A stretch of 64,000 nucleotides of DNA from Alphaproteobacteria bacterium (GCA_965232515.1 CBDDPY010000002.1:1760001-1824000), one strand, 5' to 3'. Numbered from the stretch's first letter, positions 13,489 to 64,000 are shown. Made by a program: numbers and translations. The notes: generated from the sequence alone by a model not told the origin.

Positions 13489-14151
13489 TTACGATTTTTC
13501 CAGAACCTGACGCGCCAACGGCACGGTGATGCGACGCCGTCCGGACAGCGCGGCCGTATCGAGGTCGATGACGGCACGCCGGGCCGCGTCGAACGACCGC
13601 TCCATTCGGGCCAACAGATAGGATATCACGTCCTCATCGACCGGCATCTGCCGATCCCGAAAATGCTTCGCCATCAGGCCGGCGAGGAGCTGATCGTCGG
13701 GCGATCCGACCCCGACCGCGGGCGCGGCCAACAACCGCGAACGCAGATCCGGCAGCCCGATCGACCAGTGCTTCGGCGGCGCGGCGGCGGTTAGCAGCAG
13801 ATGGCCCTTGCGCTCCGCCACCAGGTTGTAGAGATGCAACAACAGCCGGTCGTCGAAACCGTCGTCGACCGGATCGACAACCAGGTTTCCGGCCGCTGCG
13901 AGCGCGTCGGGACCGCTGACCTGCAGCATATCCATGGTCACGACGTCGGCGCCGCTGCGTCGGCGCCAGACCTGGGCCAGATGTGTCTTGCCGCAGCCCG
14001 GCGGGCCATAGAGGCACAGTGCCGGTCCTGGCCAGTCCGGCCAGCGGTCGAGCCAGGCTACCGCGTCGGCGTTGCCGTCGCCCACCAGCAGGTCGCCCCG
14101 CCCCAACGCCGGACGAAACGGCAATTCGAAGGCGAGCTGATTGGCGGGCAT
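13489..14151 (-). CDS. hdaA: DnaA regulatory inactivator HdaA
   Basis: N-terminal clamp-binding QLAF; [10 protein letters not shown]; LPDLRSRL; RMERS; typical synteny near purM. Confidence 0.88.
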
Positions 14152-45505: not shown

Positions 45506-45510
45506 CCCAC

Positions 45511-47057: not shown

Positions 47058-47074
47058 GCAGGGCTAGAGCGCAC

Positions 47075-48454
47075 GTGGCGCAACCCGCCGAACGCTTCGT
47101 CTGCCAGAGTTGCGGCGCGGTCCATCGCAAATGGTCCGGCCGCTGCGGTTCTTGCGGTGAATGGAACTCGATCGTCGAGGAGCTGAACGAATCGACGCCG
47201 CCCAAGGGCCTCGGCGCGGGCAAAGGCCGGCAGATCGAATTCAGCGCGCTCGATTCACTGCCGCTGGGCGAGGAACCGCGGCTGGCCACCGATATCAAGG
47301 AATTCGACCGCGTCTGCGGCAGCGGCCTGGTGCCCGGCTCGGCGATCCTGATCGGCGGCGATCCAGGCATCGGCAAATCCACGCTGCTGCTGCAGGTCGC
47401 GGCGGCGCTTGCCCGCGCCGGCCACCGCTGCGCCTACATCTCCGGCGAGGAGGCGACCGATCAGGTGCGCATGCGGGCACGCCGTCTGGGCTTGGCCGAC
47501 GCGCCTGTGCAGCTCGCGGCGGCGACCAATGTGCGCGACATCCTGACCAGCATCGACGTCGCCGAGGCCCCGCGCACCGTGGTCATCGATTCGATCCAGA
47601 CCATGTTCGTCGACAGCCTCGAATCGGCGCCCGGCACGGTCTCGCAGGTCCGCACCAGCGCGCAGGAGCTGATTCGTCTGGCCAAGCGCCGCGATATCGC
47701 CATGCTGCTGGTTGGCCACGTCACCAAGGAAGGGCAGATCGCCGGTCCCCGCGTGCTCGAGCACATGGTCGACACGGTGCTCTATTTCGAGGGCGAGCGC
47801 GGGCATCAGTTCCGCATCCTGCGCACGGTGAAGAACCGCTTCGGTCCGACCGACGAGATCGGCGTCTTCGAGATGACCGACGGCGGCCTGATCGAGGTGG
47901 CGAATCCCTCGGCGCTGTTCCTGTCCAGCCGCCCCGGCGGCGCGGTCAGCGGCACCTCGGTCTTCGCCGGCATGGAGGGCACGCGGCCGGTGCTGGTCGA
48001 AATCCAGGCGCTGGCCGCCCGGTCGTCGCTGGCGACGCCGCGGCGCACCGTCGTGGGCTGGGACAGCAACCGGCTCGCCATGGTCATGGCCGTGCTCGAT
48101 TCGCGCTGCGATCTCGGCGTGTCGGGCAACGACGTTTACCTTAACGTCGCCGGCGGCCTGCGTATCGCCGAGCCAGCCGCCGACCTTGCCGTCGCCGCGG
48201 CGCTGATCTCCTCGCTGACCAACGTGGCCGTGCCGGCCGAATCGGTGCTGTTCGGCGAGATCAGCCTGTCCGGCGAAATCCGCCCGGTCAGCCAGGCCGA
48301 CCTGCGCCTGAAGGAGGCCGCGAAGCTAGGCTTTCAGCGGGCGCTGGTGCCGCCAGCGCCGAATCGGCGCGCGGCGCCGCTCGACATCGTCGAGGTCAGG
48401 CATCTGCATGACCTCGTCGAGCTCTTTACAACCCGTCGCGCCGCCGCCATATAG
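47075..48454 (+). CDS. radA: DNA repair protein RadA/Sms
   Basis: CQSCG..W.G.C..CGEWN, GDPGIGKSTL, KNRFG, Lon-like C-terminus. Confidence 0.96.
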   Translation: MAQPAERFVCQSCGAVHRKWSGRCGSCGEWNSIVEELNESTPPKGLGAGKGRQIEFSALDSLPLGEEPRLATDIKEFDRVCGSGLVPGSAILIGGDPGIGKSTLLLQVAAALARAGHRCAYISGEEATDQVRMRARRLGLADAPVQLAAATNVRDILTSIDVAEAPRTVVIDSIQTMFVDSLESAPGTVSQVRTSAQELIRLAKRRDIAMLLVGHVTKEGQIAGPRVLEHMVDTVLYFEGERGHQFRILRTVKNRFGPTDEIGVFEMTDGGLIEVANPSALFLSSRPGGAVSGTSVFAGMEGTRPVLVEIQALAARSSLATPRRTVVGWDSNRLAMVMAVLDSRCDLGVSGNDVYLNVAGGLRIAEPAADLAVAAALISSLTNVAVPAESVLFGEISLSGEIRPVSQADLRLKEAAKLGFQRALVPPAPNRRAAPLDIVEVRHLHDLVELFTTRRAAAI

Positions 48455-48464
48455 TCGCGCCGCC

Positions 48465-49136
48465 ATGGACGCCCTGCCCATCAACATCACCGATATCGCG
48501 GTCTTCGCGATTCTGCTGATCTCGGCCGTGCTGGCGCTCAGCCACGGCTTCGTCAAAGAGGTATTGGCGATCGCCGGCTGGGTTGGCGCCGCCATCGTCG
48601 CGCTGAAGCTGTTCCCGGTGCTGCAGCCGGTGACCCGGCAGTATGTCGAGCATGAGCTGCTGGCCGACGGCATCACCGGCGCCGGCATTTTCCTCATCAC
48701 GCTGGTCCTGCTGTCGCTGATCGCCGGCCGCATCGCTAGACTGGTGCGGGACAGCGAAATCAACACGCTCGACCGCTCGCTCGGCTTCCTGTTCGGCCTC
48801 GCCCGCGGCGCCGTGATCGTCGCGCTCGGCTATCTGGTCCTGGTCCAGTTCGTGCCGCCCAAGGAGTTCCCGTCCTGGCTCGGCGAGGCCCGATCGCTGC
48901 CTGTCGTCGCCTACACCGCCGATCTGCTGCTGACGCTCGCGCCCGAGGAGATCGCCGCCGGCTTGAGGGTGGTCGAGGATGTGGGCGATTCCGCCACCAA
49001 GGCCCTACGCCCGCAGGACGCGCTCGGCGTGCTTCAGGGCGCCGTAACGCCGCCTGACTCCGGCGATGAAAAGGGCTATAAGTCCGAGGATCGACGGGGC
49101 CTGGAGCGCCTGTTCGAAAGCAAGCAGGACAACTGA
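48465..49136 (+). CDS. cvpA: CvpA family protein
   Basis: GFVKEVL..AGW, DRSLGFLFGLARG; upstream of purF. Confidence 0.88.
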   Translation: MDALPINITDIAVFAILLISAVLALSHGFVKEVLAIAGWVGAAIVALKLFPVLQPVTRQYVEHELLADGITGAGIFLITLVLLSLIAGRIARLVRDSEINTLDRSLGFLFGLARGAVIVALGYLVLVQFVPPKEFPSWLGEARSLPVVAYTADLLLTLAPEEIAAGLRVVEDVGDSATKALRPQDALGVLQGAVTPPDSGDEKGYKSEDRRGLERLFESKQDN

Positions 49137-50635
49137 TGCGCCGTGCCGCCAACACCGGCTCTCAGCCGCCGACCGACCGGTCTTTGACCACGCACCCGCT
49201 GGATGATGACAAGCTGCACGAGGAATGCGGCATTTTCGGCATTTTCGGCGCCGATGACGCCGCCGCGCTGACCGCGCTGGGCCTGCACGCCCTGCAACAT
49301 CGCGGCCAGGAAGCAGCCGGCATCGTCTCCTATGACGGTCGACAGTTCCATTCCCATCGCGGGCTGGGCCACGTCGCCGACAACTTCGATTCCGAGGCGG
49401 TGGTGAGCCGCCTGAAAGGCCGCGCGTCCATCGGCCACAATCGCTACTCGACCACGGGCGAGACCGTGCTGCGCAACGTCCAGCCGCTGTTCGCCGAGCT
49501 GGAGTTCGGCGGTTTCGCCGTCGGCCACAACGGCAACCTGACCAATGCCCGGGCGCTGCGCCGCGAGCTGGTCAAACGCGGCTGCATCTTCCAGTCGACC
49601 ATGGATTCCGAAACCCTGATCCACCTGATCGCGACCAGCGGCTTCGCGACGATGATCGATCGGCTGGTCGACGCGCTGCGCCAGGTGGTGGGCGCCTACA
49701 GCCTGGTCGCCCTGTCGAACACCGCCCTGATCGGCGTGCGCGACCCCATGGGGGTGCGGCCGCTGGTGCTGGGCGAGCTCGATGGCGCGCCGATCCTGGC
49801 CAGCGAGACCTGCGCGCTGGATATCATCGGCGCGCGGTTCATCAGGGATGTCGAGCCGGGCGAGATCGTGGTCTGCAGGGAGGACGGTGTCGAGAGCCTG
49901 AAGCCCTTCCCGCCCCAAAAGCACCGGGCCTGCATCTTCGAGTACATCTATTTCTCGCGGCCCGACTCGATCATCGAGGAGATGAGCGTCTACGACATTC
50001 GCAAGAATATCGGCCGCGAACTGTCCCGCGAAAGCGGCGTGCCTGCGGATCTGGTGATCCCGATCCCGGATTCCGGCACGCCGGCGGCGCTCGGCTACGC
50101 CAACGAGGCCGGTATCCCCTTCGAGCTCGGCATCATCCGCAACCACTATGTCGGCCGCACCTTCATCGAACCGACGCAGCAGATCCGCGACCTCGGCGTG
50201 AAACTCAAACACAACGCCAACCGCAGCGAAATCGCCGGCAAGCGCGTGATCCTGGTCGACGACAGCATCGTTCGCGGCACCACGGCCCGCAAGATCGTGC
50301 AGATGGTCCGCGATGCCGGCGCGACGGAAGTGCACATGCGCATCGCCAGTCCGCCGACCATGCATCCCTGCTTCTATGGCATCGACACGCCGTCGCGCGA
50401 GGAGTTGCTGGCCGCCCGCATGAACGTCGAGGACATGCGCGACCATATCGGCGTCGACACGCTCGCCTACATCAGCATCGACGGCCTCTACCGGGCCGCC
50501 GGCGAAAGCCGCCGAGACGCGGACGATCCGCAGTTCTGCGACGCCTGCTTCACCGGCGACTACCCCGTCGCGCTGACCGATCTCGCTGACGGTGATTCCC
50601 CGGCGCAGTTGTCGCTGCTGGCCGAAAGCGCCTGA
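49136..50635 (+). CDS. purF: Amidophosphoribosyltransferase
   Basis: HEECGIFG, LQHRGQE, CIFEYIYF, VILVDDSIVRGTT, CFYGID, CDACF; start may be TTG near 49184. Confidence 0.96.
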   Translation: MRRAANTGSQPPTDRSLTTHPLDDDKLHEECGIFGIFGADDAAALTALGLHALQHRGQEAAGIVSYDGRQFHSHRGLGHVADNFDSEAVVSRLKGRASIGHNRYSTTGETVLRNVQPLFAELEFGGFAVGHNGNLTNARALRRELVKRGCIFQSTMDSETLIHLIATSGFATMIDRLVDALRQVVGAYSLVALSNTALIGVRDPMGVRPLVLGELDGAPILASETCALDIIGARFIRDVEPGEIVVCREDGVESLKPFPPQKHRACIFEYIYFSRPDSIIEEMSVYDIRKNIGRELSRESGVPADLVIPIPDSGTPAALGYANEAGIPFELGIIRNHYVGRTFIEPTQQIRDLGVKLKHNANRSEIAGKRVILVDDSIVRGTTARKIVQMVRDAGATEVHMRIASPPTMHPCFYGIDTPSREELLAARMNVEDMRDHIGVDTLAYISIDGLYRAAGESRRDADDPQFCDACFTGDYPVALTDLADGDSPAQLSLLAESA

Positions 50636-50647
50636 CGCGTTCGTTAT

Positions 50648-51376
50648 ATGCCCGACCGCCTGCAGGACCGTATCGCGCTCGTCACCGGCGCTTCGCGCGG
50701 CATCGGAGCCGCCATTGCCCAGGCGTATGCCCGCGAAGGCGCGCATATCATCGCCGTCGCCCGAACGGTCGGCGGCCTGGAAGAACTTGACGACGCGATC
50801 ACGGCCGGTGGCGGCAGCGCAACCCTGGTGCCGCTCGATTTGACCGAACCCGACACCATCGAACAGCTCGGTGCAAGTATCTTCGAGCGCTGGGGCCGGC
50901 TCGACATTCTGGTCGGCAATGCCGCCGTCCTCGGCCAGCTCAGCCCCGTCGGCCATATCGAGCCGCCGACCTGGCAACGCGGCTTCGACCTCAATGTCAC
51001 GGCAAACTGGCGTCTGCTACGCTCGCTCGATCCGCTGCTGCGGCAGTCGGATGCCGGCCGGGCCATTTTCCTGACCTCGGGCGTGACGCGGACGCTGCCG
51101 GCTTATTGGGCCACCTATTCGGCGTCCAAGGCGGCCCTGGAGGCGCTGGTCATGACCTACGCCCGAGAGATCGAGAAGACCTCGGTGCGCGCAAACCTGG
51201 TCAATCCGGGCCCGACGCGTACGCAGATGCGCGCGGCGGCATTTCCCGGCGAAGATCCGGATACGCTGCCGCCGCCAGAGCATCTGACGGACATTCTGAT
51301 CCGGCTCGCCGAACCCGATTTCACCGGCAATGGCCTGTGGGTCGCCGCCGACGCCGAGCCCGCCTCGCTGCACTAG
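50648..51376 (+). CDS. SDR oxidoreductase (YciK-like)
   Basis: TGASRGIG, YSASKAA, NPGPTRT.MRA.AFPGEDP; usual neighbour of purF. Confidence 0.88.
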   Translation: MPDRLQDRIALVTGASRGIGAAIAQAYAREGAHIIAVARTVGGLEELDDAITAGGGSATLVPLDLTEPDTIEQLGASIFERWGRLDILVGNAAVLGQLSPVGHIEPPTWQRGFDLNVTANWRLLRSLDPLLRQSDAGRAIFLTSGVTRTLPAYWATYSASKAALEALVMTYAREIEKTSVRANLVNPGPTRTQMRAAAFPGEDPDTLPPPEHLTDILIRLAEPDFTGNGLWVAADAEPASLH

Positions 51377-51385
51377 GCTGTCGGC

Positions 51386-53260
51386 ATGACCGATGATGCT
51401 TCCCTTCAGCCCGCCGGAAGGACGGTACTGAGAGAGACTTCACGGGTTCGTCTTCGACATTTCCGTATCGGCATCGCCAGCGGCCTGCTCATAGCATTCG
51501 GCGGTCTGGTGTTCGTCGCCGTGGCCGCGGTTCTGGCGATCTCGATATGGAGCGCGCGCGAAAACACGCTGTCGTTGCTGCAGGACAAGACGCAGTCAAC
51601 CATGCGCTTGATCCTCAGCGATATCGATCGGCATCTGCAACCGGCCGAAGACCAGCTTGAGTATCTCGCAAAGAAGATCGAGGCCGGCGAGATCGACTCC
51701 GGCGACGACGCTGAAATGACGACCTTCATGACCGGCGCATTGGCGGCGACGCCCGATGTTCGCATCCTGGTCCTGCTGCGCCCCGATCTCTCGGCCATCG
51801 AGGTGCCCGTCGTCTCCCCAACCCCGCAGGCGCAGGCGAACATTCAAGCCGGCCTGGAACTGGCGCGGACTATTCTGGCCGACGCGGAGAAGCGGCAGGA
51901 GCTGTTCTGGGCCGAGGTCGTGCGCGCGCCGCGGGAACGAACGACGATGATCAACGTGCGCCGGCCGCTTCGCCGCGACGGACGCTTCCTTGGCCTGCTT
52001 GCCGCCGGCGTCGAGGCGGACCGTCTGTCGGACCTGTTGGACAACGTTGCCTACAAGCTGGGTGGCAGCGCCTTCATCCTTTACGACGATGGGTACGTTC
52101 TGGCGCACCCGCAGATGATTCTCGGCTTCCCGGGCCTCAGCCCCTCGCAACCGCTGCCGCGGGTCGACCAGATCGTCGATCCCGTTCTGGCGGCTTATCT
52201 GCGGCCCAGCGACAACGCCGGGCTGGATATCGAAGGACGCCTCTCCAGCAGCATGAATATCCGCTTCCTCGACACGTCAGAAGGCGAATACATCGCGCTA
52301 TTCCAACAGATAGACGGTTATTCGGACCGGCCGTGGACCGTCGTCGTCTACTTCCCCGAGGCGGAACTGACCGAGACGATACGGCGTGCCGCCGCCGCCG
52401 CGATCGCGGGTCTTGCCGTGCTGCTGATCGCGCTGATCGTGGCCTTCATCATCGCCCGCCAATTGAGCGCGCCGATCGGCCGGCTTGCCGTCAGCGCCAA
52501 CCAGATCAAAGACCTGCGGCTCGACGGCGTGAAGCCGTTGCCGACCAGCAGCTTCGCCGAACTCAGCGATGCGTCTTCCGCCTTCAATTCAATGATCGTG
52601 GGGCTGCGCTGGTTCGAGACCTACGTGCCCAGAACGCTCGTACAGCGCCTGATCGGACAGGGCGACACCTCGGCCGGTATCTCGGCCGACCGCAATGTCA
52701 CCGTGCTGTTCACCGATATCGCCGGCTTCACCGGCCAATCCGAACACATGACCGCCGGCGAGACCGCGACCTTTCTCAACCACCATTTCTCACTGCTCAG
52801 CCAATGCGTCGAGGCCGAGGGCGGCACCATCGACAAGTTCATCGGCGATGCACTGATGGCCTTCTGGGGCGCGCCGGAATATCAGCCCGACCACGCCGCC
52901 CGCGCCTGCCGCGCGGCGCTGGCGATCCGCGCGGCGGTCAAGGCCGACAATGCGGCCCGGATCGCCAACGGCCAGCCGCCGGTACACGTCAGGATCGGCC
53001 TGCACAGCGGCCACGCCGTCGTCGGCAATATCGGCGCGCCGCAGCGCATGAACTACACCATTGTGGGCGACACGGTGAACGTCGCCAACCGGCTCGAGGC
53101 GCTCGCCAAGACGGAAACGCCGTCGGGCGCGGACAACGAGGTCGCGATCCTGCTCAGCGCGGCAACCGCTTCGGCGGCCGGCTCGGCAATGACACCGGTC
53201 AAGGCCGGCAGCTTTCAAATCCGCGGCCGCAGCGAAGAGATTGAGGTCTTCGCGATCTAG
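51386..53260 (+). CDS. Membrane class III adenylate/guanylate cyclase (periplasmic sensor + HAMP)
   Basis: Two TM helices; [46 protein letters not shown]. Confidence 0.9.
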
Positions 53261-54609
53261 CTTTTTTTCTTGTTGTCGTAAGGGTTCTTGCCGCGACGAA
53301 GATTCACGCGGATCGGCACGCCGTCCAGATCGCCAAGCTCGCGAATGCCATTCTGCAGGTAACGAACGTAGGACTCCGGCAGATCGACCGGCCGGTTGGC
53401 GAAGATCACAAAGGTCGGCGGTCGGGTCTTGGCCTGGGTCATGAACCGGAGGCGCAGCCGCCGGCCGCTGCCGGCGAGCGGCGGCGGATGGCGCTCGACC
53501 GCCTGCTCCAGCCATTCGTTCAAACGCGCCGTCGGGATCCGGGCCTGCCAGCGGTCGTAGATATCGAAGACCGCCGGCATCAGCTTGTCGACGCCCTTGC
53601 CGGTCAAGGCCGACAAGGTCACGATCGGCAGGCCGCGCACCTGCGGCAGCGACGTTTCCAGCCGGTCGCGCACGGTCTGCATCGCCGCGCGCCGGTCGCC
53701 GACCAGGTCCCATTTGTTGACGGCCAGCACCATGGCGCGGCCCTCCTCGACCACACGGGCGGCAAGCGTCAGCTCTTGCTTTTCCAGCGGCGCCTCGGCG
53801 TCGACCAGCAGCACCACGACCTGGGCGAAACGCATGGCGCGCAGCGCGTCCTCTGCCGACAGCTTCTCCAGCCGCTGGCTGATCCGGGCTTGCCGGCGCA
53901 GGCCGGCGGTATCGAACAGCCGCACCGGCCGGCCCTGCCAGGCCCAGTCGATGCCGATGGCGTCGCGGGTGATGCCGGCCTCCGGCCCCGTGATCATGCG
54001 GTCCTCGCCCAGCAGCCGGTTCACCAGCGTCGACTTGCCGACATTGGGGCGGCCCAGGATGGCGAGCCGCAGCGGGCCGTCGGCCGCCTCGTCCTCTTCG
54101 TCCAGTTCCGCGGCATCGGGCGCATGGGTGCTCAAGGCCTCGTAAAGCAGATCCAGTCCCTCGCCGTGGGCGGCCGACAACGGCAGCGGATCGCCCAGTC
54201 CCAGGGCGTAGGCCTCGGCCTGTCCGACCGCGCCGCCCCTGCCCTCGCACTTGTTGGCCGCCAGCACGACCGGCTTGCCCTGGCGGCGCAGCCAACGCGC
54301 GAAATGCGCGTCGATCGGCGTCGGGCCGCTGCGGGCGTCGATCAACATCAGCGCCACGTCGGCGTCGGCCAGCGCCGCCTCGGTTTGACGCCGCATCTCG
54401 GCCTCGAGCGTGCCGGCGTCGGCCTCCTCCAGCCCCGCCGTGTCGATGACGCGGAAGGTCAGCGGTCCGAGCCTGGCCTCGCCCTCGCGACGGTCCCGGG
54501 TCACGCCCGGCAGGTCGTCGACCAGCGCCTGCTGTTTGCCGACCAGGCGATTGAACAGCGTCGATTTGCCGACATTCGGCCGGCCCAGGATAGCGACAGT
54601 GAACGGCAT
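53257..54609 (-). CDS. der: Ribosome biogenesis GTPase Der (EngA)
   Basis: Tandem [31 protein letters not shown]; KH-like C-terminus. Confidence 0.96.
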
Positions 54610-54613
54610 CGGC

Positions 54614-55954
54614 TTAGCGCAGCGCGATAAGTTCCGCGTCGTCGGACAGGATGTAGAGCGTGCCGTCGGCGACCACGGGCGCGATGAACGACGCCGCCGG
54701 CAGGCGCATCTCACCCAGCACCTCGCCGGAATAGGGCGAGACCGACACCGCGCGGCCATGGCTGGACACCAGGATCAAGCGGTCGCTGACCAGCACCGGT
54801 CCGCTCCACTGGATCGGATCTTCCCGATCCTCCTCGTCCTCGAACCGCTGCAGCTGCGCGACCCAGCGGATCCGGCCATCGCGCCGCGAGAGGCACAGAA
54901 GCTCGGCCTGGGTGGTGACGACATAGATGAAATCGCCGCTGACCCAGGGCGTCTCGACGCCGGTGATATCGCGGTCCCAGATGCGCTCGCCCGTGCGCAG
55001 GTCGATGGCGGCCATGCGGCCGGAATGGCTGATGGCGATGACCCGGCCGCGGTCGACCACCGGCTTGCCGCGAATGTCGCTCAAGGCGGCAAGCGGCGTG
55101 AAGCGCGCGGCCTTGACCAGCTGGTCGCTCCAAACCACGCGGCCGTTCTCGACCCTGAGCGCGAACAGCTCGCCCGAGGTATAGGGAACCACCACGATAT
55201 CGCCGTCGACGGCGGGACTGGCGCCGCCGATCAGGCCGGCGTCCTCGGGGATGCCGACATGGTTCCACAGCACCCGACCGTCATCGGCCGCCAGCGCGAA
55301 CATCTGATTGTCGTAAGTGACGACGAAGACCCGGCCGTCGGCGGCCGTCGGTGGCGCCCGCATAGGCACGCCGATCCGCCGTTCCCAATAGACCCGGCCC
55401 GTCTCGGCCTCCAGCGCATAGACCTCGCCATAACCGGTACTAACGAACAGGATACCGCCGTCGAGCGCGAGGCCGCCGCCGAGTGCGCCGCTGTCTTCGC
55501 CCTTGGGCGTCGCATTGGCGCGCCACAAACGATCGCCGGTGTTGGCGTCGATGGCCGAGATCCGGCTTTCCGCATCCATGACGAAGACCCGGCCGCCGGC
55601 GACGATGGGCGGCGCCAGCAGCCGTAGCAGCGAGCTCGAGCCCTCGCCGACATTGACCTCCCAGGCCGTCGCCAGGTCGTCCGGCAACTCCAGATGGTGC
55701 ATCGCATGGCTCGGGAAGCCGCCGGCCTGCGGCCAGTCGGGATTGCGCCATGGCCGCGGCAGCCGCACCTCCAGGTCGGCGATGCGCGGGTCCGGTTCCA
55801 GCGTGTCCTGCAGGCTGAGCACCGAGATCCGCTCGCCCGGTAGCGGCGGATCCTCGGCATCGCCAATCCAGTCCGGCAGCAGCTCGCAGGCCGCCAGCAT
55901 CACGATCAGCGGCAGCAGCGCCAGGCGTCGTGGCCACATCAGCGGCGGGATCAC
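54614..55954 (-). CDS. PQQ-like beta-propeller lipoprotein (BamB-like)
   Basis: Lipobox [13 protein letters not shown], repeated A.D..TG...W; yfgM-bamB-der synteny. Confidence 0.85.
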
Positions 55955-55957
55955 GCC

Positions 55958-56611
55958 TCAGCCCCCCTCGCCGAGCGCGTTCAGCATCTGCTGGGCGCGC
56001 GCGCGCACGCCGGGCGGCGCATCGGCCGCTTCCGTCAGCGCCTTGAAGCTCTCCACGGCGGCGGCCGTCCGGCCCTCGCGAACCGCCACGGTGGCAATCA
56101 GTTCCTGCGCCGAAAACCGCCAGGGATTGTCGTCCGTCAACAGCGCCTGCAGCCGTGCCTCCAGATCGGCGGCCGACGCAACGTTGGCAAGCTGCATTGC
56201 GGCCATCAATGCCGCCAGGTCGCGGTAGATCTGATCGGCGCCGCCGTCGGCGACGATGCCGTCATAGACCGCGACCGCGCCCTGGGAATCGCCGGTTTCG
56301 GCCCGCGCCGCCGCCTCCTGGAACCGGGCGATCAGGGCATAGCCGCTGCCGGCGTCGTCCGCCAGTGCCGAGAAAGCGGTGACGGCGTTGGCGTTGTCGC
56401 CACGCTGGACCAGCTCGATCGCCGCGGCAAATCGGGCCGACTCGGCGCTCCGCTGATCCGCCTGGTGATTACGCCAGAGAACCGATCCGGCGGTGCCCAG
56501 GACCAGCGCCACGCAGCCGGCAATGACCAGGGTGCCGTAGCGCTTCCACAGGTCCTGCAGCTTGTCCTTGCGAAGTTCTTCGTCGACTTCGCGGAAGATA
56601 TTGTCCGACAC
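55958..56611 (-). CDS. YfgM-like TPR membrane protein
   Basis: DNIFREVDEELRKD..LWKRYG followed by TM; PWRFSAQE; GTG start. Confidence 0.85.
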   Translation of the reverse strand: MSDNIFREVDEELRKDKLQDLWKRYGTLVIAGCVALVLGTAGSVLWRNHQADQRSAESARFAAAIELVQRGDNANAVTAFSALADDAGSGYALIARFQEAAARAETGDSQGAVAVYDGIVADGGADQIYRDLAALMAAMQLANVASAADLEARLQALLTDDNPWRFSAQELIATVAVREGRTAAAVESFKALTEAADAPPGVRARAQQMLNALGEGG

Positions 56612-56749
56612 GCGCGGTCCTCGGATGCTCTGAATGGCCGGCCAATGTACCGGCATGGGTTTTTAGCGGCAAACGCCGCCCGATAAAAGGCAATCTCGAC
56701 ATCGGATCGTCACATGGACAGCCGCTAACGGGACATCGTGTCAGACCTG

Positions 56750-57697
56750 TCAGCCGGCGCGATAAAGCTCTGTGCTGAGATACTTCATGCCGGAATCGCA
56801 CATAACAGTGACCACCGTGGCGCCGGCGCCGAGTCGCGCCGCGAGCTTTTGGGCGGCGATCAGGTTCCCGCCGGTCGAGGTTCCGGCGAACAGCGCCGCG
56901 GTTCGGGCGAGCGTCCGCGCCATCGCCATGGCATCGGCCGTCCTAACCGTGGCGATCTCGTCAACCGCGTCCGGCGCCCACAACGGCACGACGAACCCCG
57001 CGCCGACGCCTTCGATCCGATGCACGCCGCCTTTTTCGCCCGAAAGCACGGCGGATTCGCTCGGTTCCACCGCCACGACATGGACGTGTGGATTGTGCTC
57101 GCGCAGCCGTTCGGCCGTGCCGCGCAGCGATGCCGCCGTACCGACGCTCTGGACGAAGGCATCGACCTTGCCGCCGGTCTGCCGCCAGATCTCGTCGGCC
57201 ATCGTCCGGTAGGCGCTTAGTTGATCGGCGTTGTTCAACTGGTCCGTCCAGAAGCCGCCGGTGCGCTCTTGGATCTCGCGCGCCGCCGCGATCATCCCGC
57301 GGGTCAGCGCCGCGTCCATGCCGCCGCCATCGCTCGGCACCAGGGTCAGATCGGCCCCCAGCGCCTTCATATGATCGCGCTTCTCACGGCTGAAGGCATC
57401 CGAGGTCACGATGTGAAGCGGATACCCCTTGGCGCAGCAGATCAGGGCCAGCGACACGCCGGTGCTGCCGCCGGTGTATTCGACCACGCTACCGCCGGCC
57501 GCCAATCGGCCGTCCTGCTCGGCCGCCTCGATCATGGCCAGCGCCATGCGGTCCTTCATGCTGCCCGTCGGATTCTGGCTCTCGATCTTGAGCAGGATCC
57601 GCGCCTGGCCAGGACGGGCAAGCGCGCGCAGCTCGATCAGCGGCGTGCCGCCGATCCGGTCGAGAATTGATCCGTCAATGGATGTGTCGCGCGGCAT
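56750..57697 (-). CDS. PLP-dependent cysteine synthase family protein (atypical)
   Basis: IGGTPL, KIESQNPTGSMKDR, HRIEGVG, CDSGMKYLS; GGAGG RBS; substrate loop EYTGGSTG. Confidence 0.85.
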   Translation of the reverse strand: MPRDTSIDGSILDRIGGTPLIELRALARPGQARILLKIESQNPTGSMKDRMALAMIEAAEQDGRLAAGGSVVEYTGGSTGVSLALICCAKGYPLHIVTSDAFSREKRDHMKALGADLTLVPSDGGGMDAALTRGMIAAAREIQERTGGFWTDQLNNADQLSAYRTMADEIWRQTGGKVDAFVQSVGTAASLRGTAERLREHNPHVHVVAVEPSESAVLSGEKGGVHRIEGVGAGFVVPLWAPDAVDEIATVRTADAMAMARTLARTAALFAGTSTGGNLIAAQKLAARLGAGATVVTVMCDSGMKYLSTELYRAG

Positions 57698-57766
57698 GTC
57701 GTTGTCCTCCGGCGCGCACATTCCGTGATTTATTTTCGATCCGGAAGGCGTATAAACCGCACCATA

Positions 57767-58690
57767 ATGGATAGAAATTCATCCGCCGACTGGGACGACC
57801 TGCGGGTCTTCCTCGCCGTGCTGCGGGCTGGTTCGCTGCGTGGCGCCGCACGTCTGCTACGGCTGAACCACGCCACCGTGAACCGCCGATTGAAGGGGCT
57901 CGAAGCGGCCTTCGGGACCCGATTGTTCGACCGGACGCGGGCGGGCCTCGTGCCGACCCAGGCCGGCGAGGACCTGCTGGCGACGGCCGAGCGAGTGGAA
58001 GACGAACTGCTCAGGGCGCAGCGCGATATCGCCGGGCGCGACGGGCATCTCGATGGCCGGATCAAGGTCAGCCTGCCCTACGCGATCATGAAGGGCTTCT
58101 TGGCGGCCGATCTACACGCCTTTTCGAACCGCTATCCCGGTATCGCGCTCGATCTCGAGCTGACGGACCGGTTTTCCGACCTGGCCCAGTTGGAGGCGGA
58201 TGTGTCGATCCGCATGGCCCACGACGTCACCGGCGACGCCGTCGGCCGCCGGCTGGTGCAATACGCCAAGACGATCTACGCCGCGCCCGATGTCGCCGAA
58301 CGCCTCGATCCGTCATCCGACGGCGGCGACGCCAGCCCCGACTGGATCGGCTGGCCCGGTGCGGACGGCAGCAACGCCTGGTCCCGCGGCACCCCGTTTC
58401 CACGGCTGCACGTCCGCCACAACCTGCCCAGCCACGCGTTGCAGCTGGAGGCTGCGAAGGCCGGCATGGGCCTCGCGATGCTGCCCTGTTTCCTCGGCGA
58501 CCCCGAACCGGGCCTGGTCCGCCTCCCGGGCGCGGCGCCCGTCCCCGACCGCAGCATCTGGCTGCTCCTGCGCGCGGGCCTCCGCACCACGGTCCGCGTC
58601 CGCGCCTTCGCCGACTTCATCGCCGCCGCCATCCTCGATCGCCGCACGCTGTTGGCGGGCCGCGCCTACGCCCACTCGATGGCCTCATAA
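57767..58690 (+). CDS. LysR-type regulator divergent from the cysteine synthase-like gene
   Basis: WDDLRVFLAV.RAGSL.GAAR.L..NHATV.RR, LFDR, EADVSIR. Confidence 0.9.
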   Translation: MDRNSSADWDDLRVFLAVLRAGSLRGAARLLRLNHATVNRRLKGLEAAFGTRLFDRTRAGLVPTQAGEDLLATAERVEDELLRAQRDIAGRDGHLDGRIKVSLPYAIMKGFLAADLHAFSNRYPGIALDLELTDRFSDLAQLEADVSIRMAHDVTGDAVGRRLVQYAKTIYAAPDVAERLDPSSDGGDASPDWIGWPGADGSNAWSRGTPFPRLHVRHNLPSHALQLEAAKAGMGLAMLPCFLGDPEPGLVRLPGAAPVPDRSIWLLLRAGLRTTVRVRAFADFIAAAILDRRTLLAGRAYAHSMAS

Positions 58691-58731
58691 ACTTCTAGAG
58701 CGTTGATATTCAGAGAAAAAATCTCTTTTTC

Positions 58732-59481
58732 TCATTCCGTAGACCGCGCTTCATGCGATGTCGCCGATCCCTTGTTGAGGCAGAGGAGCAGTCGTGTGCG
58801 GCCAGTTCCCGCGATGGGCGGCGAGCGGTGCACGATTCCGCTGCCCGGACTGGCGCAGCTTCCCTTGAAGATCGCCACGTCGTGGGCGCGGAGATGCTCC
58901 ACCGGTCCGGTGTAGCGTTCCTGTTCGTGCAACGCCCGCGCGGCGTAATGCGGTTCGACCCACTGGGTGCCAGGGCCGCGGTATGTGGTCAGCAGGCGCG
59001 CCTCCACACAATCGCGGTGGAACTTCCAGCACGCGTTATTGCTGACGCGCTCCAGCCGAACATCAACGAGATCGCTTCGGGTGATACCAGCAAAAGCCGA
59101 AACGAGGTCATCGACGTCGCCGATCAGCAAGTCTCGCATGTCTCCCGGCGGCATCCCGCATTCGTCCAAATGGGATTCCACCGCCTGTCGAACGTCGCCG
59201 GATTGGACGGCAACACGAAGGTGAGGAAGATACGAGGCGTCCAAGCCTTCGAGCCAGGTCTTCAAAGACAAGGGGGGCACGCGCCGCCAGATCACGAGCT
59301 CCCGGTCGGGCCCTTTGATGTCCGCGAGCCCTTCCGCCGAGCCGCAGGTCACAATGCGTTCGGCCAGTCGAGCGGATGTTTTGGTGAATTCATGAGCCGG
59401 GGTTGCCAACGGGCGGGCCTCGAGACCTTCGTCGTGGGGCGTATCGAGCAAGCCCAAGGCATCTGGTCGAAGGATCGCCAT
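58732..59481 (-). CDS. DUF1826-like protein
   Basis: LVIWRR, CWKFHRDCV..RLLTTYRGPGTQW, DVAIFKG, GIVHRSPP, RLLL. Confidence 0.8.
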   Translation of the reverse strand: MAILRPDALGLLDTPHDEGLEARPLATPAHEFTKTSARLAERIVTCGSAEGLADIKGPDRELVIWRRVPPLSLKTWLEGLDASYLPHLRVAVQSGDVRQAVESHLDECGMPPGDMRDLLIGDVDDLVSAFAGITRSDLVDVRLERVSNNACWKFHRDCVEARLLTTYRGPGTQWVEPHYAARALHEQERYTGPVEHLRAHDVAIFKGSCASPGSGIVHRSPPIAGTGRTRLLLCLNKGSATSHEARSTE

Positions 59482-59482
59482 T

Positions 59483-60610
59483 TCAGAGCGACTCCCTGAT
59501 CATGGCCTCAAAGTCATCCTCCGTCGCCTTGCGCGGATTGGTCAGGGCGGACAGGTCCTTCTTCGCATAGGTGATCAGGTCGGGAATGTCTTCCTCCTGA
59601 ACGCCCATAGCGCTCAGGCCGGACGGCAGACCGATGTCGGCGTTCATGGCGGACACCGCGTCGGCAATGTCGGCACCGGGCGGTAATCCCATGGCCTGGC
59701 GGAGGCGATCATATTTCTCGCCACAGTCAGGTGCGTTGAACCGCAGCACTGCGGGCAGGAAGACCGCGTTCAGAGTGCCATGATGGAGATTCAAGCGCTC
59801 GATGCGTCCCGCAGCATGGCTTAGGGCGTGAACGGCACCCAGGCCTTGAATGAAGGACAGCGCCCCTTCCGTTGAGCACATCATCATCTGCCACCGGGCC
59901 TCGCGATCCTTGCCGTCACGCACCGCGGTTGGCAGGTGACGCCAACCCCGCCACAAACCGTCAAGCGCCACGCCATCGGCGGGGGGATTAACCGTCGGTG
60001 TCAAGAGTGCCTCGATGCAATGGGTGATCGCATCCATGCCCGTGGCCGCCGTCATTGTCGCAGGCAGGCCCAATGTCAGTTCCGGGTCGCAGATGGCTGC
60101 TTTCGGAACAAAGAGCGGGCTTGCAAAGGTCAGTTTGCGCCCATCGTCCATGATGATGACGAACCCGACGGAAACCTCACTGCCCGTTCCGGCCGTGGTC
60201 GGCACCGCAATCAGGGGCGCGACCGCCTTGACGAGCTTTGCGCCGCCAGCCAGGGGATCGAACTGAGCAAGCGGACCGCCACTGCCTGCGAGCAGCGCGA
60301 CAGCCTTGCCCAAATCCATTGAGGATCCGCCACCAATGGCGAGGACGCCATCACATCCGTCAGACGTATACTGGTCGAATGCCTTCAGGACGGCTGCTTC
60401 CGTTGGATTTCCGGGCGTACCGTCGAAGAGCGAGGTTGGTGTATCCGCCTCAAGCACGCTGGTGACGCTTTCGACAAGCCCCGCCGCCACAACACCAGCA
60501 TCCGTGGCGATGAACGGCTTCGAGATGCCCGCTTTGCGCAACTCGGCCGGAATCTGCTGCACGGCGCCATAATCGAAGTGGGTCGTCGTCAAATACGTCA
60601 GCGTTGCCAT
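59483..60610 (-). CDS. Iron-containing alcohol dehydrogenase (4-hydroxybutyrate dehydrogenase-like)
   Basis: GGGSSMD, PTTAGTGSE, metal ligands GMDAITHCIE / VHALSH / LHHG. Confidence 0.88.
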   Translation of the reverse strand: MATLTYLTTTHFDYGAVQQIPAELRKAGISKPFIATDAGVVAAGLVESVTSVLEADTPTSLFDGTPGNPTEAAVLKAFDQYTSDGCDGVLAIGGGSSMDLGKAVALLAGSGGPLAQFDPLAGGAKLVKAVAPLIAVPTTAGTGSEVSVGFVIIMDDGRKLTFASPLFVPKAAICDPELTLGLPATMTAATGMDAITHCIEALLTPTVNPPADGVALDGLWRGWRHLPTAVRDGKDREARWQMMMCSTEGALSFIQGLGAVHALSHAAGRIERLNLHHGTLNAVFLPAVLRFNAPDCGEKYDRLRQAMGLPPGADIADAVSAMNADIGLPSGLSAMGVQEEDIPDLITYAKKDLSALTNPRKATEDDFEAMIRESL

Positions 60611-60632
60611 GACGGTTCCGAAACTCCCCTGA

Positions 60633-60866
60633 CTAGTGAGAACGCGCGCGAGGATGTCTGAGCAGCGCGGCGACTTGCATGAGATGAGCGGCGGTCTGAG
60701 CGGGGTTTCCACAGCGCCCCGCCATCTCGATCAATTCCAGCGTCAGCGCATCGACGACGGCGTCGGACGGGAGCCAGGCCTCGCCCGCTTGTGTGATGGC
60801 TTCCTGCAGAAATCGCCGGGCCTTTTTTACGTCTTCCGCATGCACGGCTGCGATCGCATCGTTCAC
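60633..60866 (-). CDS. Small helical hypothetical protein (77 aa), paralog of 62122-62418
   Basis: GTG start overlaps COG0523 stop (GTGA), GGAG upstream; ungapped similarity to the upstream small ORF. Confidence 0.7.
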
Positions 60867-62098
60867 TGTTCTGTCTCCGAGCTGCGCCGCCAAATTGGGA
60901 ACGGGTCCCTCAGCTTTCTCCAGGCAGCGGGCTGCATTGCCTTGGCGTTGGCGTCACCGACAAGGCAGGTGTCGAGACGACGACGGATCGCGGCCTCGTC
61001 CATGTCGGTGCCGATAAAGACGATTTCCTGGCGGCGATCTCCATAGATTGGATCCCAGACGTTGGCAATGTGCTGTCGCCATTCCGGATGGTCCGGCCAG
61101 TGGTCCTTCGGCACGCTGGACCACCAGAAGCCCATGGCTTCATGCCGCACCAGCGCGCCGGCCTGGCTCAATTCGCCAACCCACTCCGGGCGGGTGGCGA
61201 GCCAGAAGTGCCCCTTGGCACGAATGACGCCTGGCCAAGAGGCGTTGAGGAAGGCGTGGAACTTCTCGGGATGAAAGGGGCGGCGCGCCCGATACACAAA
61301 GCTGCGCACGCCATACTCTTCGGTCTCGGGCTTGTGCTCCGCGAAGCCGTACAGCTCCTTGAACCACAGCGGGTGTTCCTCGGCCTTGTCGTGGTCGAAC
61401 CGGCCGGTGTTCAGCACCTTATCCAGCGGCACACGCGACATGTTCGTCTCGATCAGGTCGGCGTCGGGATTGAGCGAGCGGATGATCTTGCGCGCGGCAT
61501 CGATCTCCTCGGGCGTGGCCGCGTCGATCTTGTTCAGAATGATAACGTCGGCGAACTCGATCTGATCGACGAGCAGGTTGACCAGCGTGCGGGTGTCCTC
61601 CTCGCCCAGCGACTCGCCCCGGTCCTTGAGGAAATCGGTCGAGGCGTAGTCGCGCAGAACGTTCGCGGCATCGACCACGGTCACCATCGTATCGAGGCGC
61701 GACACATCCTCGAGGCTTTCTCCTTCTTCCGTCCGGAAGTTGAAAGTGGCCGCCACGGGCAGCGGCTCGGAGATCCCGGTCGATTCGATCAGGAGGTAGT
61801 CGAACCGGCCATCCCCCGCGAGTCGTCGCACCTCCTGGAGAAGGTCGTCGCGCAACGTGCAGCAGATGCAGCCATTGGTCATTTCGACCAGGGTCTCTTC
61901 GGTGCGGCTCAGATCGGCGCCGCCGTCCCGAATGAGGTCGGCGTCTATGTTGACTTCGCTCATGTCGTTGACGATGACCGCGACGCGTTTGCCTTCGCGG
62001 TTGTTGAGGATGTGGTTCATCAACGTGGTCTTGCCGGCGCCGAGGAAGCCGGACAGGACGGTAACGGGAAGCTTGGCGTGCGGGAGAGTTTCACTCAT
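60863..62098 (-). CDS. zigA: COG0523 zinc metallochaperone GTPase (ZigA/YciC type)
   Basis: [56 protein letters not shown], Cob[28 protein letters not shown]. Confidence 0.92.
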
Positions 62099-62121
62099 GG
62101 ACGGAGACTTTCATGCTGGAA

Positions 62122-62418
62122 TCATCGTTTGCGGCCTTCCTGGATTGCCGAATGTGGCCTATCTGAGGTCGATATCTCGCCGGCAAGCTGGCCCAGCACG
62201 GAAGCCACGCCGTCCGCTCCGTAGGCTTCGACGAGACGCGGCATCAACTCTGTCATCAGCGCAGCGAGCACCGTATCTCTGGGGATGCCTGCTTCATCGC
62301 ACCGTGCGATCGCAGCGCGCACCTCAGTCAGGGCATCAGCCAAGCGTGGGGGCAATTGGACGTCGGAGATATCGTCGACGGGCTCAAGCAGGGAGTGTGC
62401 TGCCGTTCGATCTTGCAT
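62122..62418 (-). CDS. Small helical hypothetical protein (~98 aa), first gene of the Zur-box leftward operon
   Basis: GAGGTGG upstream of ATG 62418; 23 nt before zigA; similar to 60633-60866. Confidence 0.7.
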   Translation of the reverse strand: MQDRTAAHSLLEPVDDISDVQLPPRLADALTEVRAAIARCDEAGIPRDTVLAALMTELMPRLVEAYGADGVASVLGQLAGEISTSDRPHSAIQEGRKR

Positions 62419-62634
62419 ACGTCCATCCACCTCAAAGCTGCGTTGGGTTTGGCGCATCGCCATAGACGGCCTTCGGATGGAAGGATTTCTGTGACACCGC
62501 GAGCACGAGCCGAGCTGGTGAGAACGGACTCTGTCGGTCGCCTACCGACCATTGCTGTGTCCATGTCAAACCCTCACCTACGGCCACTCCCCCGGCGACC
62601 GAAGGACGTCGGTTTTTTGCAATCAGCAAATGCT

Positions 62635-62646
62635 ATGTTATAACAT
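62635..62646. promoter_or_regulatory. Zur box overlapping divergent promoters
   Basis: Perfect palindrome ATGTTATAACAT (proteobacterial Zur core); plus TTGCAA(62617)-N16-TATAAC and minus TTGTGT(62664)-N16-TATAAC both use it as the -10. Confidence 0.88.
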
Positions 62647-62679
62647 TACGGGGTTTAAACACAAGATAAGGACAAGGTC

Positions 62680-63177
62680 ATGGCGTTTCTGTCGAGCCAG
62701 CCCAGGCCTTGTACCGATCCCGATTGCCGCAGGCAGCATGCGCCGGCGGAACGGGTTGCGCTGGCAAAGTCCCTCTGCGGCGCGCAACTTACAAAACTGC
62801 GGCGCCAGATACTGGAACTGCTCTGGGAGAGCGGTCGCCCGATGGGCGCCTACGAACTGATCGAAGCGCTGAAGCTCAGGGACTCTCGCCCGGTCGGACC
62901 GCCCACCGTCTACCGGACGCTTGAGTTTCTGATATCCCAGAAGCTCGTCTCGAAGATCGAGAGCCGGAACGCTTACGTACCCCGCGCGCATCCGGAGCGC
63001 CGGCATGACTGCATTTTCTTCATCTGTAGCAACTGCGGGTCGTCGGTCGAGTTGGAGGACCTGCCGCTTGAGCGCCTGATCTCCAAGGATGCCGCCCTTA
63101 TCGGGTTCCGCCCAACACGGCGCGTGGTCGAAGTCGAGGGCACCTGCGCGAGTTGCATCTCGGCCGGTGCGTCCTGA
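62680..63177 (+). CDS. zur: Fur-family regulator, Zur-like
   Basis: LT.LRRQILELL, GAYELI..L, PPTVYRTLEFL, IES.NAY, FICSNCG..VE, EVEGTCASC. Confidence 0.82.
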   Translation: MAFLSSQPRPCTDPDCRRQHAPAERVALAKSLCGAQLTKLRRQILELLWESGRPMGAYELIEALKLRDSRPVGPPTVYRTLEFLISQKLVSKIESRNAYVPRAHPERRHDCIFFICSNCGSSVELEDLPLERLISKDAALIGFRPTRRVVEVEGTCASCISAGAS

Positions 63178-63197
63178 ACAGGAAAGAGGGGCATGCC

Positions 63198-63449
63198 ATG
63201 GAAAGCTGGGATCTCGATGGACCGGTTGCCAATCACGGTGTCCAGCACATCTTCCACCCAGCGGTCATGCTGAAGGAATGGCCGATTGAAGACATCAGCT
63301 CCCGGATCGTCTTCATCACGCGAGATATCGACGAATCCGCGCTCCGAGACACGCTGAAGATGTTCGGGACCAGCAAGGTCCGGCAGCCGAAAATCCTGCC
63401 CGTCGAGACGGGCGACAGCGACGTCGCCATGTTCGAGGTGCGGAGATGA
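63198..63449 (+). pseudogene. Stand-alone C-terminal (CobW_C) fragment of a second COG0523 protein
   Basis: HGVQHIFHP....WP.ED..SRIVFITRDID matches the CobW_C tail; GTPase domain absent; has RBS GAGGGG and ATG. Confidence 0.7.
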
Positions 63450-63643
63450 CGCTATGCCTGACCAATACGCTGACCAAGACGAAAGAGCTTTTCTCGCCGG
63501 CGGATGCCCAGCGGTCCATCTTAGACAGCTTTGGGTTTCTCGAAGATTGGGCCGAGCGCTACCAGTACCTGTCGCCATTCCCGGAGACGAAGCGGATCGA
63601 GGCCAACCGGCTGCATGGCTGTCAGGCCGGGGGAAGCGCATAA
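63446..63643 (+). pseudogene. Internally deleted / miniature SufE
   Basis: I.DSFGFLEDWAERYQYL and EANRLHGCQ match SufE; the IDLGR.L segment and the C-terminal half are missing. Confidence 0.7.
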
Positions 63644-64000
63644 TGGATCTCGACCTATACAACAAACAGATCCTGCGGCTTGCCGCGTCGATACCCCGAG
63701 TCGGCCGGCTGGCGGCTCCCGACGCGTCGGCAACCGCGCATAGCCGGCTTTGCGGCAGCCGGATCACCGTCGATCTCAAGCTCGATGGCGATGTCATCAC
63801 CGACTACGCCCACGAGCTCAAAGCCTGTGCCATCGGGCAAGCGGTCGCCTCCGTCATTGCCAAGGTTGTCGTTGGCCTGACCATCGATCAGGTGGACGAG
63901 GGCGAAGGAATTCTGCGTGCCATTCTCCGGGACAAGACGCTCCCGCCGCCGGGGCCCTGGGTCGAACTCGAGCCATTCCTACCGGTCGCGGACGTCAGCA
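63643..64000 (+). CDS. SufU/IscU (NifU_N)-like Fe-S scaffold protein, 3'-truncated by window edge (not in ORF track)
   Basis: MDLDLYNKQILRLAASIPRVGRL..PDASATAHSRLCGSRITVDL..KACAIGQA; TAATG overlap with mini-sufE. Confidence 0.85.
   Translation, partial: MDLDLYNKQILRLAASIPRVGRLAAPDASATAHSRLCGSRITVDLKLDGDVITDYAHELKACAIGQAVASVIAKVVVGLTIDQVDEGEGILRAILRDKTLPPPGPWVELEPFLPVADVS

Follow-up and report, generated by a model that had tools for sequence, protein, structure and literature searches.

COG0523 GTPases and DUF1826 proteins are known members of Zur regulons (Haas 2009, PMC2770081). The main text of that study (Haas et al. 2009, BMC Genomics 10:470) describes Zur-regulated clusters in which a COG0523 gene is accompanied by paralogues of CysS, HisI and Cam; a cluster of Cupriavidus metallidurans combines YciC and FolE2 with paralogues of CysS and QueD as well as of Cam and PyrC. 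The paralogues of cysteinyl-tRNA synthetase (CysRS) are described there as retaining their zinc ligands, and the word SufE is absent from the main text (Haas 2009). We analyzed a 64,000 nt window of DNA from an alpha-proteobacterium (GCA_965232515.1, CBDDPY010000002.1:1760001-1824000), in which two divergent gene groups between position 58732 and the right end flank a putative Zur box. A preliminary description of this DNA had proposed a dedicated low-zinc system that reroutes sulfur for iron-sulfur (Fe-S) cluster assembly and had not recognized the combination as a described system. The Zur box, a COG0523 GTPase and DUF1826 are common to the locus and the published clusters. Intact relatives of the locus also share zur, znu genes, HisI, gamma-carbonic anhydrase (gamma-CA) and an extra CysRS with conserved zinc ligands. 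Since Zur clusters with COG0523, DUF1826 and CysS, HisI or Cam paralogues have already been published, the locus belongs to a family of a known kind. Unlike those clusters, the locus in this genome lacks complete adjacent paralogues of zinc enzymes and zinc uptake genes; folE, hisI, cysS and gamma-CA persist there only as remnants, and one of the two COG0523 genes is lost. The folE copy of the relatives fits models of type I FolE and not FolE2, and the island adds a second Zur of its own and an iron-type alcohol dehydrogenase (Fe-ADH) with a small open reading frame (ORF); a minority of relatives carry SufE, SufU-like and yidD genes behind cysS. With a probability of roughly 0.8, we are dealing with a zinc-starvation island under the control of a Zur box, which was gained by horizontal transfer and most of whose cargo has been deleted in this genome.

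All coordinates refer to the whole window, except those of the related loci L021 and L025, which follow their own numbering (L-numbers designate loci of this and other genomes, A1-A6 our alignments). The right arm (plus strand) consists of zur2, an ORF with a CobW_C fragment, a mini-SufE ORF and a SufU-like gene, with ATGA and TAATG overlaps. The left arm (minus strand) starts from the box with small ORF A and continues with a ZigA-type COG0523 gene, small ORF B, the Fe-ADH gene and the DUF1826 gene, separated in this order by a 23 nt gap, a 31 nt overlap, a 22 nt gap and a 1 nt gap. The preliminary description was thus right about the ORFs of both arms and about their close packing. The left-arm GTPase (60863..62098, minus strand) is an intact predicted zinc metallochaperone of the ZigA type (full-length match to NCBIfam NF038288 with 645 bits, cut-off 600), with cobW (PF02492) and CobW_C (PF07683) domains and a GCICC motif in its translation; full-length copies with 87%-92% identity occur in many related loci. 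Like ZigA of Acinetobacter baumannii it stands behind a Zur box; unlike there, its neighbors are the small ORFs, Fe-ADH and DUF1826, or folE and hisI in the relatives.

The first gene of the right arm, zur2 (62680..63177, plus strand), is intact and encodes a Zur-like regulator of the Fur family (PF01475, 42.8 bits, cut-off 23.1). It is a second Zur copy, 38% identical to the Zur protein encoded at the znu locus of the same genome, and scores below the NCBIfam cut-off for Zur equivalogs (NF008646, 81.6 bits versus 167). The cysteines C116, C119, C156 and C159 of the CxxC...CxxC structural zinc site are invariant in alignment A1. The Zur2 orthologues are extended at the N-terminus by a common stretch in which two Cys and one His are conserved (QPRPCTDPxCRGQH), which the Zur of the znu locus lacks. 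A search anchored on Zur2 yielded 70 related loci from Alpha- and Gammaproteobacteria (with a few other labels), most of them with 65%-88% identity. Nearly all are from metagenome bins, and one (L024) is from the cultured Algihabitans albus, where zigA, DUF1826, folE, zur2 and cysS2 are present.

The regulatory core of the island (62617..62664) contains the palindrome ATGTTATAACAT at 62635-62646, flanked by TTGCAA on the plus strand (62617-62622) and TTGTGT on the minus strand (62659-62664), each hexamer lying 16 nt from a TATAAC within the box. The perfect palindrome of the preliminary description was found, and it equals the core of the Zur box GATATGTTATAACATATC published for alpha-proteobacteria of the Rhodobacter group in 12 of 12 positions (PMC2706843). 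It was the sole match in the window at up to 2 mismatches, which is weak evidence alone because 17 of 100 shuffled sequences also gave at least one match. The genome of 7.39 Mb contains a single exact copy and four more copies with one mismatch. Conservation across the related loci was strong: a box with at most 2 mismatches preceded zur2 in 60 of the 63 loci that contain the gene start and 120 nt upstream, and the 3 remaining loci bear a related palindrome. The distance from the box to the zur2 start was 31-32 nt in 53 of 59 loci measured. A TTG at 16 nt from TATAAC, in the window at 62617-62619 and 62662-62664, was kept on both strands (45-52 and 44-54 of 59 loci). This spacing makes it plausible that the palindrome serves as the shared -10 region of two divergent promoters, as had been proposed. 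Together, the match to the published box and its conservation support a divergent, Zur-box-controlled zinc-starvation locus.

A matrix built from the sites of the related loci was run over the 7.33 Mb contig. The island box ranked first (31.4 bits), the intergenic site between zur1 and znuA third (23.2 bits) and a site just after znuA fifth (20.1 bits). The scores dropped sharply past the fifth site, the next independent match reaching 12.2 bits. None of the four other COG0523 paralogues of the genome was found among the 40 best-scoring sites. High-scoring boxes other than that of the island were located on contig C2 at 1277436 (L004, around 3000), preceding a secreted ORF of 274 amino acids (aa) without a family; at 3806636 (L005), where a gene for a TauD-family dioxygenase lies on one side and one for a GntR/UTRA regulator on the other; and at 3894929 (L006), preceding a secreted ORF of 510 aa directly after znuA.

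The two small ORFs between zur2 and the SufU-like gene had been read as members of a low-zinc system. Both turned out to be deletion remnants and not small functional proteins. The ORF with the CobW_C fragment (63198..63449, plus strand) is what remains of a second COG0523 gene: its start (MxxW) is joined in frame to the last approximately 78 residues, and only positions 44-91 of the 94 positions of the Pfam CobW_C domain are covered. Compared with the full COG0523b protein of locus L021 (A3), approximately 310 internal residues are missing, including the GTPase domain with its P-loop, the CxCC motif and the His-rich stretch. In the COG0523b proteins of intact islands, the GTPase domain is separated from CobW_C by a run of approximately 40 residues in which His, Asp and Glu predominate; this run is wholly deleted here. 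The mini-SufE ORF (63446..63643, plus strand) is a chimera, in which the first approximately 20 codons of a cysS paralogue are followed in frame by SufE residues 16-66 and the last 3 codons of SufE (A2). The last three SufE residues read MTLCLTNTLTKTKELF here and MPLVLTNSLTREKDVF in L021. In total, 44 SufE residues are left (16-66 less a 7-residue gap), which cover profile positions 2-43 of 121 and score below the cut-off for PF02657 (19.2 bits versus 27). In common with SufE/CsdE of E. coli, the remnant keeps the GCQ loop, being cut directly after GCQAG; in contrast to those proteins, it consists of the N-terminal part of the domain fused to the N-terminus of CysRS. The same SufE truncation and the 7-codon gap occur in L077, an independently assembled bin in which the cysS paralogue is still complete. 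The truncated SufE of that bin has Arg in place of both the active-site Cys and a conserved Trp.

We mapped the deletions by blastn against L025, L021, L049 and L077. Window positions 62510-63221 correspond to 9835-10550 of L025, 63210-63504 to 11433-11727, 63495-63630 to 13092-13248, and 63626-63703 to 13508-13585. Three joins thus lie in the right arm, near 63210-63221, 63495-63504 and 63626-63630, and the protein alignments A3 and A2 agree with them. Two further remnants lie next to the box on the minus strand. Positions 62435..62518 hold the last 28 codons of a hisI paralogue (phosphoribosyl-AMP cyclohydrolase), 82% identical to residues 140-167 of HisI from L021 (tblastn, E 1.7e-8); in blastn, 62430-62519 corresponds to 8742-8831 of L021. 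Positions 62523..62564 hold the first approximately 14 codons of a folE paralogue (GTP cyclohydrolase I); their junction with the hisI remnant is out of frame. The minus-strand ORF at 62328-62564 starts with MDTAMVGRRPTESV, the counterpart in FolE of L021 being MDIATVGSRPDNSV, and 62535-63221 corresponds to 9861-10548 of L021. At the right edge, the stop codon of the SufU-like gene is followed by approximately 10 codons that resemble the start of yidD, then by an internal piece of 27 codons of a gamma-CA gene (64142-64222, 85% identity over 27 residues) and then by the end of guaA. The genome has a single full cysS gene and a separate SufE gene, both located away from the island, and a search of the rest of the genome for the deleted parts gave no match. 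It follows that all recognizable zinc-enzyme paralogues (FolE, HisI, CysRS and gamma-CA), as well as one of the two COG0523 genes, were lost through at least five deletions.

The closest intact relative is L021, from a Minwuiaceae bin. Its right arm contains zur, COG0523, cysS, SufE, SufU-like, an ABC ATPase, ZnuB, ZnuA and NicO, and its leftward arm begins with copies of folE and hisI (HisI: NF000768, 158 bits, cut-off 126). The COG0523b protein of L021 is full (10522-11724, 400 aa) and His-rich, its SufE is full as well (157 aa, PF02657 domain with 150 bits), and its CysRS is clearly assigned (TIGR00435, 493 bits, cut-off 340). In alignment A4 of the CysRS paralogues (CysRS2), residues C29, C209, H234 and E238 are invariant; we take these to be the zinc ligands as in E. 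coli CysRS. The cysS2 gene ties SufE and the SufU-like protein to the island, and it escaped the preliminary description because it is deleted from this genome.

The gene content of the relatives was variable. Sequence of 4.5 kb or more downstream of zur2 was available for 40 loci. In these, the second COG0523 gene was full in 21 and partial in 5, the CysRS paralogue was full in 21 and partial in none, and gamma-CA was full in 9 and partial in none. SufE was full in 6 and partial in 2, the SufU-like gene full in 6 and partial in 3. For the left arm, 36 loci had 4.5 kb or more of upstream sequence, and in these hisI was full in 17 (partial in 2), ZigA in 15 (partial in 1), folE in 10 (partial in 4), DUF1826 in 10 (partial in 1), and Fe-ADH with small ORF B in 2 (partial in none). 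ZigA, DUF1826 and CysRS2 occurred together in 7 of the 28 loci with both flanks, and ZigA together with a full SufU-like gene in 2 of the 28. The co-occurrence expected from the preliminary description held in part: SufE-type and SufU-like genes accompany this Zur and COG0523 in full form in 6 of 40 loci each, and only L021 contains every member listed there. Other partial forms of the island were seen in L020, L022, L023, L026, L037 and L057. In six bins, between two and four related loci were present; together with the Zur2 identity across classes, this indicates either that the island has spread horizontally more than once or that the bins are mixed.

Several features of the genome suggest how the island arrived. 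A Zur2 orthologue was not found in 24 genomes of the same family (best identity 47%), and genomes of two other families hold Zur2 copies with 81% and 67% identity. The G+C content of the island is 0.59-0.63, compared to 0.64-0.72 in the windows left of it, with the shift at approximately 58,600-58,900. From these three lines of evidence we infer that the island was acquired horizontally. There was no tRNA gene in 45000-64000, no flanking repeat of note in 58300-64000, and no integrase or other hallmark of integration.

Judged from the relatives, the intact island encodes on its leftward arm additional FolE and HisI zinc enzymes, the ZigA-type COG0523 protein and DUF1826, with a small ORF and Fe-ADH inserted in three genomes. 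The rightward arm carries its own Zur, the His-rich COG0523 protein, CysRS2, SufE, the SufU-like protein, in some cases yidD and gamma-CA, and znuCBA. In the genome analyzed here, folE, hisI, the second COG0523 gene, cysS2, most of sufE, yidD and the carbonic anhydrase gene are deleted with short pieces left behind; the genes of Zur2 and ZigA, the two small ORFs, the Fe-ADH and DUF1826 genes and the SufU-like gene are still whole. By analogy to known Zur regulons, Zur bound to the palindrome would overlap both -10 regions and keep both arms off under zinc repletion, and both arms would be transcribed when zinc is scarce. ZigA may then load or reallocate zinc.

The SufU-like gene (63643..64122, plus strand) is intact, extends 122 nt past the window end and is 84% identical to the L021 copy over the full length. 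Its product shares with SufU of Bacillus subtilis, a zinc-dependent sulfurtransferase (5XT5), the NifU_N fold family and the conserved Cys of CGx and a second Cys, but differs from it in three respects. First, it scores far below the cut-off of the SufU model TIGR01994 (45.1 bits versus 92.5; the L021 orthologue reaches 56.9). Second, Ser replaces the Asp of CGD (CGS) and the Cys of RIKC. Both changes are present in all 16 sequences of alignment A5 that are linked to cysS or sufE, and two relatives linked to sufS retain Asp and Cys. In B. subtilis SufU the zinc has four ligands (Cys, Asp, Cys and Cys), and two of these positions are Ser here. Third, sufS is not adjacent. No cysteine desulfurase or class V aminotransferase is present within the island, and the SufS-like gene of the genome lies on contig C2 at 268275-269462, at a distance of 1.55 Mb. 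The assignment as SufU was therefore not upheld. The sequence beyond position 64000, where the preliminary description had suggested looking for sufS, sufBCD or znuABC, contains none of these; in the contig continuation the 3' end of the SufU-like gene is followed by the convergent guaA gene. Among solved chains, 5UFT ('NifU-like, N-terminal') is nearest to the SufU-like protein (E 2e-34); it is not known to have an assigned function.

Genes related to this SufU-like gene (E up to 1e-15) are present in 123 of 401 genomes of the class. Inspection of 1.5 kb on each side of the 29 best loci outside this genome revealed cysS directly upstream in 8, sufE directly upstream in 4 and yidD directly downstream in 11; none of the three was present in 14. 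The order cysS-(sufE)-sufU-like-yidD was also seen away from the island Zur in L009, L010, L091, L092, L095, L096, L107, L113, L115 and L116. The island locus L049 shows the order cysS2-sufE-sufU-like-yidD-gammaCA. We infer that SufE and the SufU-like gene entered the island when a cysS-sufE-sufU-like-yidD block was copied together with the cysS paralogue. Since the block also occurs without the island's Zur, hitch-hiking with cysS is a simpler explanation than a device for rerouting Fe-S sulfur. Among the papers listed in our literature searches, none connected SufE or SufU with Zur regulons or with the gene neighborhood of cysS; the additional files of Haas 2009 may bear on this.

Some observations count against an island in decay or weaken its support. 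The related loci are kin and mostly bins, so their counts describe variation and not independent events, and some of the decay variants are perhaps artefacts of assembly or binning. A consensus promoter scan found 0 sigma-70-like sites, which leaves the shared -10 region of the preliminary description with the conserved spacing in its favor and no strict consensus match; the scan demands T at the last -10 position, which explains the blank result. Zur2 has, here and in L021, Arg at the position of the Cys in VPCAHPE, which is Cys in 10 of 12 aligned orthologues (A1). By mapping to E. coli Zur, we take this Cys to be a residue of the sensing site, and its replacement makes the zinc response of Zur2 uncertain. 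The three deletions upstream of the SufU-like gene and the 21 bp deletion are all in frame, and the ATGA and TAATG overlaps are kept. The small ORFs, or translation through them, could be under selection. In a comparison with L077, the ratio of nonsynonymous to synonymous substitution rates was 0.42 in the SufE remnant, against 0.27 in the SufU-like gene and 0.36 in zur2; relaxed constraint cannot be shown with samples as small as these.

The in-frame pattern would also result if the remnants were retained because translational coupling through them keeps the SufU-like gene expressed under Zur; the small products themselves would then need no activity. The SufU-like gene is the only copy of the 5UFT type found in the genome, the one other match being weak and located beside sufS (E 3.4e-4), and the folE-hisI and yidD-gammaCA deletions, which lie outside the coupled stretch, are out of frame. 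However, four in-frame events out of six are expected by chance with a probability of about 0.10 (binomial), so that the pattern may be luck. Moreover, a search with this query revealed no close SufU-like copy in the 24 genomes of the same family (best E 9e-9), hence the gene is not generally needed. We consider this selective retention unlikely.

Also improbable, and somewhat more so, is the idea that the 5UFT-type protein and the SufE that is frequently encoded upstream of it are working partners of CysRS and not of a desulfurase, and that they might take persulfide or cysteine from CysRS. It would explain why the cysS-(sufE)-sufU-like-yidD genes are kept together across alpha-proteobacteria and why they were copied whole into a mobile Zur island. 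If it were true, the SufU-like gene would be the only right-arm gene besides zur2 that is still selected, and it would be expressed on zinc starvation by way of in-frame relics of its lost neighbors. A complex prediction for the L021 CysRS paralogue and the SufU-like protein (A4, A5) gave a score of 0.00 in two runs without controls and says nothing either way.

It is very unlikely that the right arm is a working low-zinc module, in which Zur, a stand-alone CobW_C protein, mini-SufE and SufU reroute persulfide sulfur for Fe-S assembly and are coupled to the COG0523 arm. Such a module would fit the open, tightly packed and overlapping ORFs, the recurrence of SufE and SufU-like genes in the island of other genomes and the active-site Cys of the GCQ loop in mini-SufE. 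However, both small ORFs are accounted for residue by residue as products of deletion. The 44 residues of the 121-position SufE domain stay below the model cut-off, and the L077 counterpart has already lost the active-site Cys to Arg. The distance to SufS and the low score and the Ser residues of the SufU-like protein argue further against it, and the proposed rerouting system is abandoned in favor of the decaying island. Assembly artefacts, meaning that the ORFs were collapsed or mis-joined and the real genome holds full genes, would fit the varied partial forms in many binned relatives but can practically be dismissed, since the window is part of a contig of 7.33 Mb in a genome of only 4 contigs, every 31-mer sampled from 62400-64000 is present in the Logan contigs of two runs (X1 and X2, possibly from the source sample), L077 shows the same SufE truncation although it was assembled independently, and neither a second full cysS nor the deleted parts turned up elsewhere in the genome.

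The remaining genes of the left arm are the two small ORFs, Fe-ADH and DUF1826. Small ORF A (62122..62418, minus strand) encodes 98 aa from its likely start at M16; the ORF caller had placed the start at 62463. It matched no Pfam or NCBIfam family, and the ESM Atlas returned only hypothetical proteins and unnamed clusters for it (score 0.87). Copies with 55%-67% identity occur in L027, L034, L036, L064 and L085, the conserved part starting in every case at residue 9 or 13. The ORF at 8734-9075 of L021 was considered as a copy of small ORF A and rejected, as it runs in the wrong frame across hisI. Small ORF B (60633..60893, minus strand; 86 aa) has no Pfam or NCBIfam family above cut-off. It accompanies Fe-ADH, and its copies in L021 and L064 show 65% and 83% identity. 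The two small ORFs have a stretch of 24 residues in common (46% identity, pairwise E 4e-4), and they may be distant paralogues that accompany ZigA. The Fe-ADH gene (59483..60610, minus strand) encodes a predicted dehydrogenase of the 4-hydroxybutyrate dehydrogenase type (NF058672, 518.1 bits, cut-off 500, positions 1-378 of 378). The two loci that share it, of the 36 with sufficient upstream DNA, are L021 and L064. Fe-ADH is by its distribution an accessory insert of the island.

The last gene of the left arm (58732..59481, minus strand) encodes the DUF1826 protein (PF08856, 159.3 bits, cut-off 22, positions 5-201 of 202). Its AlphaFold model (mean predicted local distance difference test score 83) suggests a double-stranded beta-helix. 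In VIA-align, all 50 listed entries were 2-oxoglutarate oxygenases or their homologues, with Z values of 8.9-10.0 and a root-mean-square deviation of 4.0 over 168 residues for the top entry. Foldseek also led to 2-oxoglutarate oxygenases (E 8e-6), with a template modeling score of only 0.36. The motifs FHxD and HRSP, which together form an HxD...H motif, are conserved in 14 of 16 sequences (A6). The model is a lead, not proof, for a fold like that of 2-oxoglutarate/Fe(II) oxygenases. Two distant DUF1826 copies (L033 and L080) have lost both His residues.

To the left of the island, at 56750-58690, a cysteine-synthase-like gene, judged by eye from the translation, and a LysR regulator gene are located in DNA of normal G+C content, outside the low-G+C island. 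No Rfam family was found within 56000-64000, and a consensus terminator scan gave nothing useful. In run X3, from a second sample of the same study as the Logan runs, only half of the words sampled from 62400-64000 were present; this sample may contain a related strain with the island in another state. Small shares of the stretch also occurred in metagenome runs from coral, sponge and marine samples, which we did not use as evidence for the habitat.

The apparent link from a zinc chaperone to Fe-S assembly rests on two gene fragments, and a false lead is thereby removed. What probably remains is a zinc-starvation island in the middle of its decay, in which all recognizable zinc-enzyme copies and one chaperone are gone and the regulator, ZigA, DUF1826 and Fe-ADH are left. 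Relatives of the island, with a well-conserved Zur of their own, are widespread in marine and host-associated bins of Alpha- and Gammaproteobacteria. Two leads arise for specialists: the cysS-sufE-sufU-like-yidD neighborhood, and the fold resembling 2-oxoglutarate oxygenases in DUF1826, a long-unknown partner of Zur-regulated COG0523 genes. The pattern of decay may help to tell the core of the island from its exchangeable client genes.

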